Shown here: positions 16,172 through 24,112 of the stretch, piece by piece | Layout: every line of letters begins with the position of its first letter | How positions within the stretch are numbered: position 1 is the first letter of the stretch | Assembly (NCBI GenBank): GCA_964486045.1 | Contig: CAZALK010000014.1 | Location: forward strand, 1 to 64,000 | Length of the DNA stretch: 64,000 nucleotides | Direction: 5' to 3' | Source of the DNA: an uncultured archaeon | Lineage (GTDB): Archaea > Asgardarchaeota > Lokiarchaeia > Sigyniarchaeales > SOKP01 | Program-made: the position numbers and the translations under genes | Notes under the pieces: model-generated | Database searches by the model: none | What the model saw: the letters and a program-made list of their open reading frames with translations, nothing else | What the model was told of the DNA's origin: nothing

Positions 16172-16456
16172 CTATTCTATGTAATCATTTTTGGATCCCA
16201 TAAGGGTGGTTGTTTCTTCGATCCAATGAGATAAATCTTTATCAATCCTACAGAAAGTCACTATTTTATCTAAATCCTTAAGCTTACTAAATGAACACTC
16301 TACTATTACATCCCAACCTCCGTATATTGGTGTTGCATATGTGATTTTCCAATTATCTTCTGATTCTTCTGATTTTAATCCAGTTAACTTCTCAACTATC
16401 TTCCATTCTGTACCAATTACTTTTAATCGTATTAATATATAACCTCGATAATACAT
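16172..16456 (-). CDS. Stand-alone Lrp/AsnC ligand-binding (RAM) domain protein
   Basis: GYILI...YGGWDVIV...IEETTTL pattern; no HTH. Confidence 0.75.
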   Translation of the reverse strand: MYYRGYILIRLKVIGTEWKIVEKLTGLKSEESEDNWKITYATPIYGGWDVIVECSFSKLKDLDKIVTFCRIDKDLSHWIEETTTLMGSKNDYIE

Positions 16457-16491: not shown

Positions 16492-17748
16492 TTAGTTTAA
16501 AACCTTCTTTGATGATTTTAAAGCATTTTTAACTTGAAATCCAATCTCACTTTGTAAACCCCATAGTGGAATAAAACCGTAACTATATTTTTGATTAAAA
16601 CTGCTACTTGTATCATAAGTTGCTAAGTTAAGATCATATAAACCATAAGGAGATTCTCTTGATACCACATTCACGCTTCCTTTATATAATTTCACCCTTA
16701 CCTTGCCTGTTACCTTTTGATTAATTGTGTTAATAAAAGCTTCTAGGGCGTCCCTTAATGGATCGACCCATAATCCTTCGTACACAAGTTCGGTCCATCT
16801 TTGATCCACCATTGTTTTAAATGAATTCTCATGCTTTGTACAAACAAACTTTTCGAGATCTTTATGGGCTTTAATTAAAATTAAAGCAGCTGGGACTTCA
16901 TACACCTCCCGTGATTTTAAACCAATTGCTCTATCTTCCATATGACCTACTCTTCCTATCCCATGCTTAGCGCCAAGGTTATTTAAATTTTTTATTAATT
17001 CAACCCCTTTCATTTCTTCATTATTTAATTGAACAGGGATCCCATTCTTAAAAAAGATTTCTACATACTCAGAGAAATCTGGAGCTTCTTGAGGTGATTT
17101 TGTCCAAGCGTTACAATCTTCTGGAGCTTCAATTTCAGGATGTTCTAAAATATCACACTCAGCACTTCTTCCAAAAAGATTTTCGTCGACACTATATTTC
17201 CGATTCTCCTCTCTTATTGGGATTCCATGTTGCTGTGCATATAATATTTCATCACTTCTGCCCATGTCCCACTCAATTAATGGCATTAAAACCTCAATTT
17301 GGGGTGCATATGCACTTATTGTCACATTAAATCTAATTTGATCATTTCCTTTCCCTGTACATCCATGAGCTATAGTATCGATTTTTTCTTGTTGTGCAAT
17401 TTTAATAGCTTCAATTGCTATCAATGGTCTCCCAATTGCGGTACTCAATGGATATACTCCTTGGTACAAACCATTTGCCTTGATAGTCGGGAACACATAT
17501 TCATTAACAAATTTATCTTTTAGATCTACTTTAAAATGTTTAACTACACCTAAATTGTAAGCTTTTTCTTCAATTTCTTTATATCTGGAGGGATCAGCAA
17601 ATTCTTGACCGAGATCAGCTGTAAAGGTATAAATTTTGGACTCATATTTCTCCTGTAACCATTTTATCATACAAGATGTATCTAACCCTCCCGAATACAT
17701 TAATAAAATTTTCTCATATTTTTCTTTTTTCGGCCCTAATTGATTCAT
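16492..17748 (-). CDS. argG: Argininosuccinate synthase
   Basis: YSGGLDTS, AHGCTGKGNDQIRF, YSVDENLFGRS. Confidence 0.97.
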   Translation of the reverse strand: MNQLGPKKEKYEKILLMYSGGLDTSCMIKWLQEKYESKIYTFTADLGQEFADPSRYKEIEEKAYNLGVVKHFKVDLKDKFVNEYVFPTIKANGLYQGVYPLSTAIGRPLIAIEAIKIAQQEKIDTIAHGCTGKGNDQIRFNVTISAYAPQIEVLMPLIEWDMGRSDEILYAQQHGIPIREENRKYSVDENLFGRSAECDILEHPEIEAPEDCNAWTKSPQEAPDFSEYVEIFFKNGIPVQLNNEEMKGVELIKNLNNLGAKHGIGRVGHMEDRAIGLKSREVYEVPAALILIKAHKDLEKFVCTKHENSFKTMVDQRWTELVYEGLWVDPLRDALEAFINTINQKVTGKVRVKLYKGSVNVVSRESPYGLYDLNLATYDTSSSFNQKYSYGFIPLWGLQSEIGFQVKNALKSSKKVLN

Positions 17749-17785
17749 ACACTTATCACTTTTTCTTCATTTTTTAAAATTTATT

Positions 17786-18835
17786 CTAAATTGGAAATAT
17801 GGGTATTGAATTTAATCCTGTATTCTCTTTTAAATTAAACATTATATTCATATTTTGGACAGCCTGTCCGGCCGCACCTTTAATTAAATTATCTATTGCC
17901 CCTATAATTATAATTTTATTCGATCTTTTATCCAATGTAAAGCCTATATCACAATAATTTGATCCTTTCACCCATTTTGTTTCAGGGAATACATTTTCCT
18001 TTGTCAACCGAACGAAATATTCATCTTTGTAATATTTCTCGTAAATTTTCTTGATTTCTTCATAATTTATTTTTTGTTTAGGCGTCCCATAAATTGTGCA
18101 TAATATTCCTCTATTCATAGGTAAAAGATGTGGTGTAAAAATTACTGAATTCTCATTTCCAGTAATTTCATTAAGTTCTTGTTCAATTTCTGGTGTATGT
18201 CGATGAGATTTTACACTATAAGGTTTAATTGATTCATTGCATTCAGAGAAATGCGTTGTTAAATTTAGAGATCGACCTGCTCCTGACACTCCCGATTTTG
18301 CATCAATAATAATGTTATTCTCCTCTAAAATTTCTTCTTTAATTAGAGGAAGTAAACTTAATAAAGCACAGGTTGGATAACAACCGGGATTACTAATTAA
18401 ATTAGAATTATTTATCTGGCTCCTCTTCCATTCACTAAGGCCGTATGTAGCCTTGCTTATCAGAGTTTCATTCATATGTCTAAGTTTGTACCATTCCTCA
18501 TAAACTCTTATGTCTTTTAATCGAAAATCTCCACTTAGATCAATAATCTTGACATTATCTAAAACAGAGTCAGTTAATAATTCGAAAGCTTTCCCATTAG
18601 GTAGTGCTAAAAAAACAACATCAAGTTCTTCACTTAAAGTCTCGAGATCCTCCTCCTCACATTTCATTTCGGATATTTTATTGAAGTTTTCAAAAACTGA
18701 ATTGTAAACTTGATCATTATGACTATTTGAGGATAGAGATTTAATTTCTACCTTTGGATGGTGATATAAAATTCTTACTAACTCTGATCCTGAATATCCC
18801 GTTGCCCCTATTATTCCTACCTTAATCATTTTCAA
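17786..18835 (-). CDS. argC: N-acetyl-gamma-glutamyl-phosphate reductase
   Basis: GATGYSG, NPGCYPT, SGVSGAG, DNLIKGAAGQAVQNMN. Confidence 0.97.
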   Translation of the reverse strand: MKMIKVGIIGATGYSGSELVRILYHHPKVEIKSLSSNSHNDQVYNSVFENFNKISEMKCEEEDLETLSEELDVVFLALPNGKAFELLTDSVLDNVKIIDLSGDFRLKDIRVYEEWYKLRHMNETLISKATYGLSEWKRSQINNSNLISNPGCYPTCALLSLLPLIKEEILEENNIIIDAKSGVSGAGRSLNLTTHFSECNESIKPYSVKSHRHTPEIEQELNEITGNENSVIFTPHLLPMNRGILCTIYGTPKQKINYEEIKKIYEKYYKDEYFVRLTKENVFPETKWVKGSNYCDIGFTLDKRSNKIIIIGAIDNLIKGAAGQAVQNMNIMFNLKENTGLNSIPIFPI

Positions 18836-18843
18836 AACCTATA

Positions 18844-20031
18844 TCAGTTAAAGAAATTTTTAAATACATCATCCAATATCGAAATTCCCTCATTTATCTC
18901 TTCCTTGCTAATAATCAGAGGTGGAACAAATCTTATGACGTTTTCTCCAGCACCTAGGATAAGTAAACCATTCTCCATACATTTAATAACAATTTCTTTA
19001 ACCGCACATTTCAATTCCATTCCGATCATAAGCCCATGTCCCCTAACTTCTTCGACTTTTTCATATTTATCTCTTAATTCATTTAATCTTTTTTTTAGAT
19101 GCTTTTCTTGTTTTTGTACATTATCAAGTACACCATTTAAAAGCTTTCTCACAACTACTTTACCTGCTGTACAAGCCAAGGGGTTACCGCCAAAAGTAGA
19201 TGCGTGATCACCTGGTTTAAAAGCATCAGCTTTATTTTGCTTCGCTAACATTGCACCAATTGGAAAACCTCCACCTAAACCTTTTGCCAAAGAAACAACA
19301 TCAGGTTCTATTCCGAATAATTGGTATGCAAATAGTTTTCCTGTTCTTCCCATACCACATTGTACTTCATCAAATACTAAAACTATATCCTTTTTATCAC
19401 AAAGTGCTCTTACTTGTTGTAAGTAATCTTTTTCTGCGGGATGGATCCCACCCTCCCCTTGTATTGGTTCAATAATGATAGCACATGTTTTTTCATTAAC
19501 CGCCTTCTCTAACAAATCAAAATTATTAAATTCAACATATGAAAATCCGGGCATTAATGGATTAAAACCACTTTGATATTTTGTTTGACCCGTTGCTGTT
19601 AAAGTGGCAAGAGTTCTGCCATGAAAAGACTTTTTCATTGTAATAATTTCATAACAATTATCATCATGAACCTTCTTCCCATATTTTCTACTTAATTTAA
19701 TTGCCGCTTCTACGGCTTCTGCTCCACTATTGCAGTAGAAAATTTTGTCAAAGCAGCTATTCTTTGTTAATAATTCGCTTAATTCTATTGAGGGAATCAT
19801 CCAATATAAATTTGAACAATGCTGTAATTTAGCCAATTGATTCGAGATCTCTTTCACATAGTCAAAATCATTATAACCTAAGGCATTTACAGCTATTCCT
19901 GCGACAAAATCCAAATATTTATTACCATTACTATCCCATAGATATACACCATTTCCTTTTTCTATAGTAATAGGGAACTGACTATAAGTATTCATAATAA
20001 CCTTATTTCCTCTTTCAATCCAATCTTCCAT
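18844..20031 (-). CDS. argD: Acetylornithine aminotransferase
   Basis: NSGAEA, FHGRT, DEVQCGMGRTG, AKGLGGG; operon context. Confidence 0.95.
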   Translation of the reverse strand: MEDWIERGNKVIMNTYSQFPITIEKGNGVYLWDSNGNKYLDFVAGIAVNALGYNDFDYVKEISNQLAKLQHCSNLYWMIPSIELSELLTKNSCFDKIFYCNSGAEAVEAAIKLSRKYGKKVHDDNCYEIITMKKSFHGRTLATLTATGQTKYQSGFNPLMPGFSYVEFNNFDLLEKAVNEKTCAIIIEPIQGEGGIHPAEKDYLQQVRALCDKKDIVLVFDEVQCGMGRTGKLFAYQLFGIEPDVVSLAKGLGGGFPIGAMLAKQNKADAFKPGDHASTFGGNPLACTAGKVVVRKLLNGVLDNVQKQEKHLKKRLNELRDKYEKVEEVRGHGLMIGMELKCAVKEIVIKCMENGLLILGAGENVIRFVPPLIISKEEINEGISILDDVFKNFFN

Positions 20032-20064
20032 GATTTAATCTAATCCTTAAATTTATGTTTATAA

Positions 20065-20958
20065 TTAATTTTTAAACATTGTACCTATCCCTCTTGAAGT
20101 AAGTATTTCAAGCAATAAACTGTGCTTAATTCTCCCATCTATTATATGGACTGCTTTTACTCCACAATTCACTGCTTCAACACAACTCTTTACTTTTGGA
20201 ATCATACCATTCGTAATTACTCCTTCTTCAATAAAAGACAAAGCTTGATCAGTTTTCATCTCCGTTATTAGAGATGTGGCATCTTCCATGTCACTTAAAA
20301 CACCTAAGACATCTGTTATATAAATTAATTTTTCAGCGTTTATTGCTTTTGAAATAGCTAGTGCTACATCATCAGCATTTATATTATAAGTGTTTCCTAA
20401 ACTATCTTTGCCTATAGGGGCAATTACAGGAATAATACCACTTTTTAATAATCCTTCTAAAAAAGAAGTATTCACAAAAGTAACCTCCCCAACAAACCCT
20501 AAATCTGTTTCATCAATGATTTTCTTTTTAGCATGTAAAAGATCCCCATCTTTTCCACACAATCCTATAGCATTAACACCTAAAGTTTGAATATCGTTAA
20601 CGATACTCTTATTGATCTTTCCTGCTAATACCATTTCAACTATTTTCATCGTTTCCTTATCTGTAATTCTCAATCCGTTGAAAAATTTTGGCTTGATTCC
20701 TAACTTGCATAACATTTTATTTATGAAGGGTCCTCCGCCGTGAACTATGATAACCTTAATCCCTACCAAATTTAAAGAAACAACATCATCTATAAATCTT
20801 CTCTTAAGCTCGGGATCTTTCATGGCACTCCCTCCATACTTTACTATAATTGTTTTCCCATAAAATTTTTTTATGAATTGAAGGGCTTCAATTAAAATCT
20901 CTGCCTTCTCTAACTTTTCAACCATACTAAACAACTTTTTATGTTCTATAATCTCCAT
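20065..20958 (-). CDS. argB: Acetylglutamate kinase (true start may be ATG 20925)
   Basis: VKYGGSAM, VHGGGP, NINAD, GMIPK. Confidence 0.96.
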   Translation of the reverse strand: MEIIEHKKLFSMVEKLEKAEILIEALQFIKKFYGKTIIVKYGGSAMKDPELKRRFIDDVVSLNLVGIKVIIVHGGGPFINKMLCKLGIKPKFFNGLRITDKETMKIVEMVLAGKINKSIVNDIQTLGVNAIGLCGKDGDLLHAKKKIIDETDLGFVGEVTFVNTSFLEGLLKSGIIPVIAPIGKDSLGNTYNINADDVALAISKAINAEKLIYITDVLGVLSDMEDATSLITEMKTDQALSFIEEGVITNGMIPKVKSCVEAVNCGVKAVHIIDGRIKHSLLLEILTSRGIGTMFKN

Positions 20959-22180
20959 TAATCCTCACATATTCATAACTTAAATCACAGCCCCAAGCAA
21001 TTGCTTCTCCTTCTCCTTCTTTAAGTAATACTTCGACCGTGATATTTGTTTTTTTTAGAATTTTTTTAGCTAATTTTTCATCAAACTTTACTGGAGTACC
21101 ATCTAGCATCAGGTTAATCGAACTTGATCCATTTTTAAAGTTAATAGAAACTCCTGATGGATCAAAATTTCCTCCAGAATATCCCATTGCTGCGAGAATT
21201 CTTCCCCAATTAGCATCCTCTCCAAAGAATGCAGTTTTCACCAAACTTGATGTTATCACAGATTTACCTAAAATTTTTGCATCTTTTTTTGACATAGCCC
21301 CTTTAACATGCACCGTAATAAACTTTTTAGCTCCTTCTCCGTCCTTCACAATTTCCTGGGCTAAAAAAGTATTTACATAATGAAGTGCATTCTTAAAAAT
21401 TTTGTAATTTTCATTTTCTTCTGTAATTTCTGAATTTCCACTCAATCCATTAGCCAATAGAATAACCATATCATTTGTACTAGTATCACCATCAACAGAG
21501 ATCATGTTATACGAATCTTCGCTACTTTCCTTCAATGCTTTTTCTAATAACTCTTTTGATACATTTAAGTCTGTTGTAATGAATGAGAGCATAGTTGCCA
21601 TGTTTGGATGAATCATTCCAGAACCTTTAGCCATTCCACCAATTCTTACTTCCTTATTATCTATGGTAAATTCAACAGATACTTGCTTTGAATGGGTATC
21701 TGTAGTCATAATTGCTTCCGCAGCTAAATTTGCATCATTCTCCGTATTCCCCAATTTTTTAAAAGTATTTTTAATGCCATTAATTATCTTATCAATTGGA
21801 AGTGGAACTCCAATAACTCCTGTAGATGCTACAAAAACTTGTTCTTTTTTTAAACCCAAACAAGAAGCTACCTCATTTGCCATTAATTCTGTATGATGTA
21901 AACCTATCTCCCCTGTACAAGCATTAGCATTTCCACTATTTACAACTATAGCTTGGGTTAGGTTATTATTATTAATTAATTTTTGATTCCAAAGTACTGG
22001 TGCAGCTTTAACAATATTTGTCGTGAAAACACCAACTGCTTTAGCTGGGACATCACTAGAGATTATAGCTAAATCTTTCTTCCTCTTCTTTATCCCAATA
22101 TGGTTACCAGTAGCATGAAATCCCTTTGGACTTGTAATTCCTCCCTTGATTTTCCTTACTTTCGAATCTTTTGCATACAT
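20939..22180 (-). CDS. argJ: Ornithine acetyltransferase / N-acetylglutamate synthase
   Basis: NSGNANACTG, KGSGMIHPNMATML, DGDTSTND, DGEGA. Confidence 0.97.
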   Translation of the reverse strand: MYAKDSKVRKIKGGITSPKGFHATGNHIGIKKRKKDLAIISSDVPAKAVGVFTTNIVKAAPVLWNQKLINNNNLTQAIVVNSGNANACTGEIGLHHTELMANEVASCLGLKKEQVFVASTGVIGVPLPIDKIINGIKNTFKKLGNTENDANLAAEAIMTTDTHSKQVSVEFTIDNKEVRIGGMAKGSGMIHPNMATMLSFITTDLNVSKELLEKALKESSEDSYNMISVDGDTSTNDMVILLANGLSGNSEITEENENYKIFKNALHYVNTFLAQEIVKDGEGAKKFITVHVKGAMSKKDAKILGKSVITSSLVKTAFFGEDANWGRILAAMGYSGGNFDPSGVSINFKNGSSSINLMLDGTPVKFDEKLAKKILKKTNITVEVLLKEGEGEAIAWGCDLSYEYVRINGDYRT

Positions 22181-22223: not shown

Positions 22224-22285
22224 AAAAAAAATAATAAAAATAAAATTTATGAAGAAGTGAAGAAAAAAATTGAACTTCAATTCTT
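22224..22285 (-). terminator. Oligo-U tracts and a weak hairpin between the leader ORF and argJ (candidate attenuator/terminator)
   Basis: Minus strand AAGAATTGAAGTTCAATTTTTTT; U7 (22269-22263) and U8 (22231-22224). Confidence 0.4.
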
Positions 22286-22300
22286 ATTTTTATTAAAGAA

Positions 22301-22372
22301 TTAAAAACCGCGGCGTGACGGTCTTAGTTTATGCGGTGCATTTTGAAACTGTATTCCTACAATTTCATTCAT
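22301..22372 (-). CDS. Putative arg operon leader peptide (MNEIVGIQFQNAPHKLRPSRRGF)
   Basis: 23-aa ATG..TAA ORF 120 nt upstream of argJ, ending AGA-CCG-TCA-CGC-CGC-GGT-TTT; a GC-rich patch in an AT-rich spacer. Confidence 0.6.
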   Translation of the reverse strand: MNEIVGIQFQNAPHKLRPSRRGF

Positions 22373-22423
22373 CAAATAAGCATCGAGTGAGATCAAACTT
22401 TAAAACACCAACATAATTTTAAC

Positions 22424-22456
22424 TTATACCTTAATATAGGTATAATTATATATAAA
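22424..22456 (-). promoter_or_regulatory. TATA box plus adjacent palindromic operator-like site for the argJ operon
   Basis: TTTATATA on the minus strand at 22456-22449; TTATACCT-N6-AGGTATAA at 22424-22445. Confidence 0.5.
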
Positions 22457-22627
22457 TTAAACGATTTTTAATCTTTCAAATCATTTCTAAAAAACTCGAG
22501 TATAAAATTATTATTTCATAAACATTTACACATAATTTCATACTTCCATTAAAAAATTTTTAGGGGGCTTTTTTCTAAATATTAAGCTTATCGGAAAACC
22601 TTGAAAAATTTTCAAATACTAGCTTTT

Positions 22628-24112
22628 TTACGACTTTAAGTCTTTAATAATATCGCCTCGCAAAGACTTTGCTTTCTCAATATTTTCTATTCTATCGAGA
22701 TACAATTTAAATAGCGATTCTTTTCTTTTGTTTAGTATATCAATATTTAATAGAACTTCCTTCTTTGATGGAGAACCTTTGCTAATTCTTTTTCCTAAGC
22801 ATAGATCGAGATTTTTTAAGCTCTGAATTAAATTTTCTGATAAATTAACTTTTTTATTTTGAATTTTATAAATGGCTTCCTCAATATTTTCTTTATTTAA
22901 CATATCTTCAGGCTTTTCTGAATTTTTCACCAGTTGTGCTACTATTATGTGTGATTTTCTAAAAGGAATATTATAATCCTGCACTAGTATTTCAGCTAAA
23001 TCCAAAGCTTGAATGAAACTTTCATCGATCGCCTCTCTCATCTTCTCTTTTTTTAAATTTAAGGTTGAAAATATTCCCTTAAACATTTCAACTATCGAGA
23101 TTACTAGATCAAAAGAATTTTTCAATATCATCTTTAAATCCTGAAAATCTCGGAAATACCCTGTAGGGATTGATTTAATAATCATTGAGCTACTAAATAA
23201 ATTTGAAACTACTTTTGAACTTTTACTCCTTATTAATTCCACTGTGTCTGGGTTTTTCTTCTGTGGCATGACACTTGAAACTGAACAAAATCTATCATCT
23301 AATTCTATAAAGTCAAATTCTTTGGTGGACCAAATTATTAAGTCTTCTGCAATTCTGGAGAATTGAATAGCTAATAAAGAAAGACCCATTAGAGTCTCAT
23401 AAATATAATCTCTCGAACTAATTGCATCAATTGAATTATAAACCAATCCATCGAACCCTAATAATTCTGAAGTTCTAAGTCTATTAATGTTAATACTTGT
23501 CCCTCCAATAGCACAAGCTCCAAGTGGATTCTTGTTAACCCTGTGATAAGTTTCTTCTATTCTTTCCAGAGTTCTTAAGATTTGTGCAATATAATTATTA
23601 ATGTAATGAGAAAATACTCCTAATTGTCCTCGTTGTAGATGGGTGTATAATGGAATGAAGAAATTAATATTATTATTAGAAAGATTAAGGAAAATCTCAA
23701 ATAATGCAAACAACTCTTTAGAAATTCTGTTTAACTCTTTTCTAATTTTCAATCTTAAATCAAGTGATATTTGATCATTTCTTGATCTACCAGTATGTAT
23801 TTTCCCTCCAATTTCAATCCCAATTTCATCAATAACACTTTTTTCTATATAAGGATGAATATCTTCAAAACTCTCGTCTACTTTTATCTGGTTGTTTAAA
23901 ATCTTTATTTTTATGCTTTCAAGAGTCAATAGTATTTTACGGATTTCACTTTTATTGAGAATTTTTTGTTCGTATAACATTATATCATGGACTTCTGTTC
24001 CAATAATGTCCTCTTCAATAATCCATAGATCTTCTTTTAAAGATGATAAAAATTTAAGTGCCTCATTATTGAGCGGAGAATTTAATCCAGACCTATACAA
24101 ATTTTTTCCCAT
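22628..24112 (-). CDS. argH: Argininosuccinate lyase
   Basis: HTGRSRNDQ, YTHLQ, SSVMPQKKNPD. Confidence 0.96.
   Translation of the reverse strand: MGKNLYRSGLNSPLNNEALKFLSSLKEDLWIIEEDIIGTEVHDIMLYEQKILNKSEIRKILLTLESIKIKILNNQIKVDESFEDIHPYIEKSVIDEIGIEIGGKIHTGRSRNDQISLDLRLKIRKELNRISKELFALFEIFLNLSNNNINFFIPLYTHLQRGQLGVFSHYINNYIAQILRTLERIEETYHRVNKNPLGACAIGGTSININRLRTSELLGFDGLVYNSIDAISSRDYIYETLMGLSLLAIQFSRIAEDLIIWSTKEFDFIELDDRFCSVSSVMPQKKNPDTVELIRSKSSKVVSNLFSSSMIIKSIPTGYFRDFQDLKMILKNSFDLVISIVEMFKGIFSTLNLKKEKMREAIDESFIQALDLAEILVQDYNIPFRKSHIIVAQLVKNSEKPEDMLNKENIEEAIYKIQNKKVNLSENLIQSLKNLDLCLGKRISKGSPSKKEVLLNIDILNKRKESLFKLYLDRIENIEKAKSLRGDIIKDLKS

Follow-up and report, generated by a model that had tools for sequence, protein, structure and literature searches.

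A conserved, probably arginine-sensing leader ORF upstream of the argJBDCG operon in a Lokiarchaeia genome

In the attenuators of enterobacteria (trpL, hisL, pheL, leuL, thrL and ilvL), a short leader with cognate codons near its end precedes a biosynthetic operon, and the position of the ribosome chooses the structure of the RNA. The leader found upstream of argJ in a genome of the Lokiarchaeia is similar in these respects, with the choice of RNA structure by ribosome position being predicted. It differs from the trpL and hisL leaders in its archaeal host, in the amino acid (arginine), in having no conserved pair of GC terminator and antiterminator and in having no match to an Rfam leader family. 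Also, a stalled ribosome in the argJ leader is predicted to permit a hairpin that hides U-tracts, whereas in trpL and hisL stalling prevents the terminator hairpin. We did not assign the argJ leader to the trpL/hisL family, because no conserved GC terminator and antiterminator were found, even though the sensor is alike.

Factor-dependent leaders of bacteria (the Rho-dependent tnaC and speFL, and the actinobacterial cys leaders, 10.1101/834739) are comparable in another way: translation of the leader sets the access of a termination factor or downstream signal, with no classical terminator involved. The factor for the argJ leader would be the nuclease aCPSF1/FttA, while it is Rho for tnaC and speFL. 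The TnaC and SpeFL peptides sense free ligands through their sequences; the argJ leader peptide, by contrast, is not well conserved. The fungal arginine attenuator peptide (AAP; Neurospora arg-2 and the yeast CPA1 uORF) is encoded by a uORF of similar size at a gene of the arginine pathway. The AAP senses free arginine through its own sequence and blocks scanning, whereas the argJ leader conserves Arg codons and RNA structure.

With respect to Archaea, an attenuator-like leader was reportedly once proposed for the trp operon of Thermococcus kodakarensis; the paper was not found in the literature that we searched. This literature, which most subscription papers lie outside, gave no published example of leader-peptide attenuation that was archaeal, Asgard or arginine-related. 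A paper of 2021 stated that no archaeal mechanism of attenuation or antitermination was known (PMC8448881); the initial annotation of this DNA described such control as scarcely documented. Translated uORFs have been described in archaea, with no attenuator role ascribed to them (PMC11456600). The closest archaeal process is termination at U-tracts by aCPSF1/FttA (PMC8716108, PMC11616081, PMC8448881), and both the U4 tracts and the gene for aCPSF1 are present in our case; promoter-proximal termination by aCPSF1 has been proposed, though in the cases known it is not a leader peptide that decides whether termination occurs.

The leader ORF upstream of argJ and its homologs

The window (the whole stretch of 64,000 nucleotides that was analysed) has on its minus strand a 447-nt gap between argH (22628-24112) and argJ (20939-22180), and the leader element is situated in this gap. 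The argH gene lies upstream on the same strand as the argJ operon. The genes said in the initial annotation to follow downstream (argJ, argB, argD, argC and argG) all had NCBIfam matches above the cut-off. Coordinates of the features are given in Table 1. No match to the ArgR repressor (PF02863) was found in this genome, which is 99% complete. We also noted, 36 nt past argG, a 94-aa ORF (16172-16456, minus strand) that by eye resembles a stand-alone Lrp/AsnC ligand-binding domain; it had no significant Pfam match.

Table 1. Features of the argJ leader element (positions in the window) and of the other cognate-codon uORFs of the genome
Feature	Position	Strand	Conservation or evidence
Candidate promoter, conserved block with terminal TATA-like TTTATATA (22449-22456)	22449..22466	-	consensus match only
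Shine-Dalgarno (SD) GGTG of the leader ORF	22406..22409	-	invariant, 16/16; 8-9 nt before start (9 nt in the window)
Leader ORF, 31 codons, TTG start at 22396, end ...RPSRRGF-stop	22301..22396	-	frame open, 16/16
Arg control codons: codon 25 AGA, codons 28-29 CGC CGC; codon 30 Gly here	22307..22324	-	conserved; codon 30 Arg in most homologs
Helix P1: SD region 22404-22416 with codons 19-23 (22329-22342)	22329..22416	-	core found by RNAalifold; 87% of cells paired; 5 pairs changed on both sides
Hairpin P1a inside P1, codons 11-18	22345-22366	-	conserved helix
Small GC hairpin P2 over the Arg codons (second GC stem of the initial annotation)	22304..22325	-	hairpin predicted in all homologs, registers differ
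Hairpin P3: A-rich 5' arm 22275-22295 with U-rich 3' arm 22232-22254; pyrimidine-rich loop with U7	22232..22295	-	all homologs
U8 tract past P3, candidate termination/cleavage site	22224..22231	-	U-run kept in core homologs; function suggested by PMC8716108, PMC11616081
Regulated operon argJ-argB-argD-argC-argG	16492..22180	-	NCBIfam matches above cut-off; argJ start 120 nt past leader stop
Cys, Trp, leuA, leuS and ileS uORFs (L113, L114, L115, L116 and L117)	contigs C25, C17, C34, C21 and C1, respectively, own genome		

Homologous loci were gathered by ArgJ protein search only, never by the leader sequence. This search produced 16 distinct upstream regions from one Promethearchaeota clade, with ArgJ identity of 61-100%; the gap-free aligned set has 13 members. 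The nearest ArgJ relatives carry the names Promethearchaeota or Lokiarchaeum. Loci L095 and L096 were left out, as their sequences end too near argJ. A check set beforehand concerned uORFs upstream of orthologous argJ genes, and we found the Arg-enriched leader in front of argJ in all 16 loci of the clade (the window and 15 relatives). Since these loci are kin, the counts show maintenance of the leader and not independent origins. The gene upstream of the leader is argH in 14 loci. The leader is kept also where this gene is argG (L099) or where there is no upstream gene on the same strand (L092), and for this reason we attribute it to argJ and not to a trailer of argH.

The initial annotation had proposed a 23-codon uORF. 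This frame does exist on the minus strand, from ATG at 22372 to TAA at 22301-22303; its ATG is codon 9 of the longer ORF, is present in only one of the 13 aligned homologs and gives way to the upstream TTG as the conserved start. All 16 loci have TTG or ATG at the start position, and the ORF length varies from 27 to 35 codons, with 31 codons in twelve loci. The two remaining sense frames are closed in 12 of 13 and in 13 of 13 aligned homologs, none of 300 column shuffles left every leader frame open, and a 12-nt deletion in the leader of L100 is in frame. The SD is complementary to the 3' end of the 16S rRNA of this genome (GAUCACCUCCU). The TATA box placed upstream earlier is a candidate by match to the consensus only. 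A block resembling the promoter candidate precedes most of the homologous leaders, and its TATA-like position would set transcription start near 22425.

Searches beyond the clade had the following outcome. At four further Asgard argJ loci, the leader profile search found no leader. We rejected the idea that the leader came with the operon from a bacterial donor: the profile search of 79 mostly bacterial argJ loci, L107 and the four Asgard loci had a best E-value of 0.17, and the nearest bacterial sisters have argJ within argCJBD, with the reservation that the donor may be unsampled. No second copy was found in the own genome, a pattern scan of metagenomes returned only duplicates of L087 and L089, and a loose pattern had as many matches across the phylum as its control. 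A Promethearchaeota argJ locus outside the clade (L102:4747-4821) has a different uORF of 24 codons with five Arg codons and an SD-like word GGGG; this single sequence is possibly an independent Arg leader.

Cognate codons in the argJ leader and in other leaders of the genome

Arg28 is invariant in the 16 loci and is encoded by CGT, CGC, CGG and AGG. Arginine takes 57 of the 128 positions in the last eight codons (45%) compared to 10 of 346 (2.9%) elsewhere in the leaders and 3.85% genome-wide; as a point against the sensing model, just two of the last four codons are Arg in some leaders, that of the window among them. Three Arg codons (AGA, CGC and CGC) are present in the last seven, as initially reported. 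As to the CGC-CGC pair, which had been called unusual, CGC makes up 4.2% of the Arg codons of this genome, and AGA 49%.

Genome-wide, 3736 candidate uORFs were taken from 2141 upstream regions. Only 24 of them (0.6%) have at least three Arg in the last eight codons, and five of the 24, including the argJ leader, have an SD-like word. The regions in front of argS, argH and the two carbamoyltransferase genes of this genome showed no Arg-rich uORF, which counts against the model. On contig C17, a uORF ending in TTTRRPR lies 164 nt upstream of a gene at 79263 that has a DHG motif, by eye typical of class I aldolase-like enzymes of aromatic pathways.

Another check proposed at the outset concerned leaders before other amino-acid genes, and in the own genome cognate uORFs were observed for four further amino acids. 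The uORF scan ranked first a Cys run (7 Cys) before a cysteine-synthase-family (cysK-family) gene and second a Trp-rich uORF (4 Trp) before trpD. Leu runs before leuA (6 Leu) and leuS (5 Leu in the last eight codons) were in the top 60, and an Ile-run uORF precedes one ileS. The sequences of these leaders are unrelated to the argJ leader.

The principal claim of the initial annotation, an Arg-codon leader coupling ribosome position to argJBDCG, thus gains support from the SD, start, frame and Arg28 kept in 16 loci and from the cognate leaders before other amino-acid genes. We consider the element to be a real, conserved and very probably arginine-sensing leader, and sensing of arginine through its codons to be likely, as judged from sequence comparison.

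In bacteria, a uORF of about 20 codons that encodes RRRLIR, with a GC hairpin and a U-tract after it, was observed before argC in Gastranaerophilales of the Melainabacteria (L022:4766-4828; likewise in L020, L023, L027, L029, L032 and L057). It looks like a classical Arg attenuator and is unrelated in sequence to the archaeal argJ leader.

RNA structure and a model of the output

The drawn structure of the leader RNA has 42 pairs, with 85.6% of cells paired and 14 pairs changed on both sides compared to 5.5 in shuffles (none of 500 as high); slid controls had 43-55% of cells paired and 7-11 such pairs, and it should be kept in mind that the structure was derived from the same, related sequences that were used for the counts. 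RNAalifold recovered the P1 core and the inner register of P3 and missed the outer P3 stem, which is 89% paired with 4 pairs changed on both sides. The folding z-scores varied from -1.5 to -4.8 for the 5' domain (P1) and from -0.8 to -5.9 for P3. The A-rich arm of P3 begins 0-8 nt past the leader stop; in L092 and L099 the hairpin is built of largely different sequence.

The two GC stems that were initially proposed as a mutually exclusive switch at the Arg codons are not conserved. The loci of the window and of L103, its nearest relative, are the only ones with a complete ACCGC/GCGGU stem, and the others have 1-4 of its 5 pairs; the ACCGC segment instead has a conserved pairing with the SD of the leader itself. 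The stem AAGACCG/CGGUUUU has 7 of 7 pairs in the window and L103, 5-6 in seven other loci and at most 4 in the remaining seven. The meaning of the respective hairpin P2 is uncertain because CGN runs are self-complementary. No conserved pair of a GC-rich intrinsic terminator and an alternative antiterminator fold was found; the only terminator-like GC stem sits within the leader ORF in a register that is not conserved, and the conserved hairpin is A/U-rich. The latter is the hairpin past the stop, which had been seen earlier and called weak; it is present and is the conserved P3. The U7 (22263-22269) and U8 tracts listed with it are present as well.

The model that we propose is as follows. The first ribosome would load on the nascent leader, with P1 shutting behind it and restricting re-loading. 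With Arg-tRNA scarce, this ribosome would stall at Arg28-30 and leave the A-rich arm free; the arm would then zip the U-rich segment on its exit from RNA polymerase, too little single-stranded U would remain for aCPSF1/FttA, and transcription would continue. With arginine plentiful, the ribosome at the stop would cover the outer part of the A-rich arm, so that the U-tracts would be single-stranded and transcription would end some 70-90 nt past the stop, ahead of argJ. P3, if it is the switch, should be the read-through form: were it the terminator, relief would come only once the ribosome had reached the stop, and a biosynthetic operon would then respond with the wrong sign.

The requirements of the enzyme set the frame for this model. 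aCPSF1, including the Loki ortholog, requires two U4 tracts (PMC8716108), and on the nascent transcript aCPSF1/FttA binds at U-rich positions -30 to -36 and cleaves near -23 (PMC11616081). In 12 of 16 loci, the last 30 nt contain two or three U4 tracts; the four homologs with one tract carry a 13-nt deletion. In predicted folds, P3 forms both in free RNA and in RNA with a ribosome at Arg28. When ribosome masking was modelled, the U-rich arm was unchanged for an A-site up to the last Arg and opened at the stop: the number of its unpaired nucleotides rose from 9.9-10.7 to 15.9 of 24 with the 3' edge of the footprint at +16, a gain of more than 2 nt in 15 of 16 loci. With this edge (counted from the P site), the number of loci with two free U4 tracts increased from 1 to 10 of 16, and an edge at +14 raised it from 1 to no more than 2; ribosome footprints of Haloferax permit either value (PMC7261190). 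Folding beyond the U-tract reversed the masking effect in 6 of 16 loci, and P3 with U8 likewise resembles a plain terminator. The output step hinges on a 2-nt assumption about the footprint. We regard the geometry as fitting and the energetics as marginal, since the masking switch depends on the footprint edge and on the extent of the fold.

A variant suited for testing the stop-position model was observed in L088 (1251-1462), where a 4-nt insertion at the leader stop adds four codons into the P3 arm and the four Arg codons are kept.

Output through termination gated by aCPSF1 is, as modelled, the best account that we have. We favor, with moderate confidence, an attenuator that senses charged tRNA-Arg and gates read-through into argJBDCG by archaeal U-tract termination instead of a bacterial GC terminator. 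Premature termination as the output is moderately probable in its own right; the exact route by P3 masking is put forward tentatively and may well be wrong in detail.

Alternative readings, and the origin and meaning of the leader

A stall at the same Arg codons may have another output, such as cleavage or altered stability of the mRNA (P3 being a processing or stabilising element), steric exclusion of aCPSF1, or changed translation of argJ. The evidence for sensing is independent of the output and the U-masking result is fragile; moreover, exclusion of FttA by the ribosome is already a published hypothesis (PMC11616081). Against this, the predicted access to the argJ start is the same in both ribosome states (mean change of 0.00), so that translational occlusion of argJ was rejected, and the leader stop lies 106-146 nt from argJ across the 16 loci, too distant for simple re-initiation. 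A ribosome at Arg28 falls short of the U-tracts, and the P3 arm is placed between the two modelled ribosome positions, the Arg codons and the stop. All in all, another output appears rather unlikely to us.

The peptide itself could act as a sensor inside the ribosome tunnel, responding to free arginine or to an intermediate of the pathway similarly to fungal AAP, SpeFL and TnaC, with the ribosome held at the stop at high arginine. The length of 30-31 codons in most homologs would agree with such an arrest peptide, as would the register of [AT]20-P21 and Arg28, which holds even in the most distant homologs. The peptide pN/pS of 0.65 points in the same direction; however, this value is within the range of column shuffles (36 of 300 were as low). 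Compared to argJ, the leader is about twice as variable in second codon positions (0.115 vs 0.052) and less variable in fourfold third positions (0.165 vs 0.297), and this points to constraint at the RNA level. The conserved residues 11-17 and 19-22 coincide with P1a and P1, the peptides of L092 and L099 have little else in common, and the sister leaders of the genome use runs of cognate codons. Selection acts on the frame, the Arg codons and the RNA structure or nucleotides, whereas its action on the peptide is not clear. This pattern fits a classical leader better than an arrest peptide, a reading that we find improbable.

It is very unlikely that the element is a riboswitch or protein-binding RNA leader with an incidental ORF: conservation at the RNA level is strong and helices covary, yet there was no match to Rfam families of T-boxes, riboswitches or leaders (the best hits, at E 0.21 or worse, were unrelated and all below the gathering score), and for an incidental ORF one would not expect a constant distance to the SD, a start that changes between TTG and ATG, a frame that stays open, a deletion that respects this frame and an Arg preserved under four different codons. 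Just as improbable is a non-regulatory element, which would either belong to argH as its 3' region or terminator or be a small gene of its own whose Arg codons are due to chance; argH does precede the element on the same strand in 14 loci, the U-tracts are those of typical archaeal terminators and, with shared ancestry, 16 loci are not 16 independent cases, but the element stays with argJ where argH is absent, equally Arg-rich uORFs are rare, the peptide is not protein-like in conservation and has no Pfam match, and four other amino acids have the same cognate design in the genome.

As to the operon that the Arg-codon leader precedes, ArgJ of the leader clade is patchy among Asgard relatives (5 of 54 genomes of the genus, 12 of 161 of the class), and the next relatives beyond the clade are Bacillota and Melainabacteria proteins at 60-68% identity. 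The leader-bearing ArgJ sequences formed one branch (SH-aLRT 90) among bacterial sequences in a quick tree whose root was not tested. Because of this patchy occurrence, the bacterial next relatives and the placement in the tree, we read the argJBDCG operon as horizontally acquired and of bacterial origin. The argJBDC block in 16492-22180 is bacterial-like, occurs in only about 10% of the genomes of the genus and has a gene order unlike the usual bacterial argCJBD.

A broader view is offered tentatively: Loki may have a leader-peptide attenuation in which stalling gates aCPSF1/FttA through an A/U hairpin, fitted to an acquired arg operon as one of several such leaders across the genome, for Arg, Trp, Cys, Leu and Ile. 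If true, this would be a first case of attenuation in which the transcribing machine resembles RNA polymerase II and the nuclease belongs to the CPSF73 family, and it would come from the lineage closest to eukaryotes. The compact element of 200 nt, with its natural compensatory variants, makes it a testable question whether ribosome position controls termination by aCPSF1/FttA. Asgard genetics would not be needed, because Loki aCPSF1 is functional in Methanococcus maripaludis reporters (PMC8716108). The argJ leader would imply functional coupling of transcription and translation in Asgard archaea, and a transferred bacterial operon would have been placed under control of the host type.
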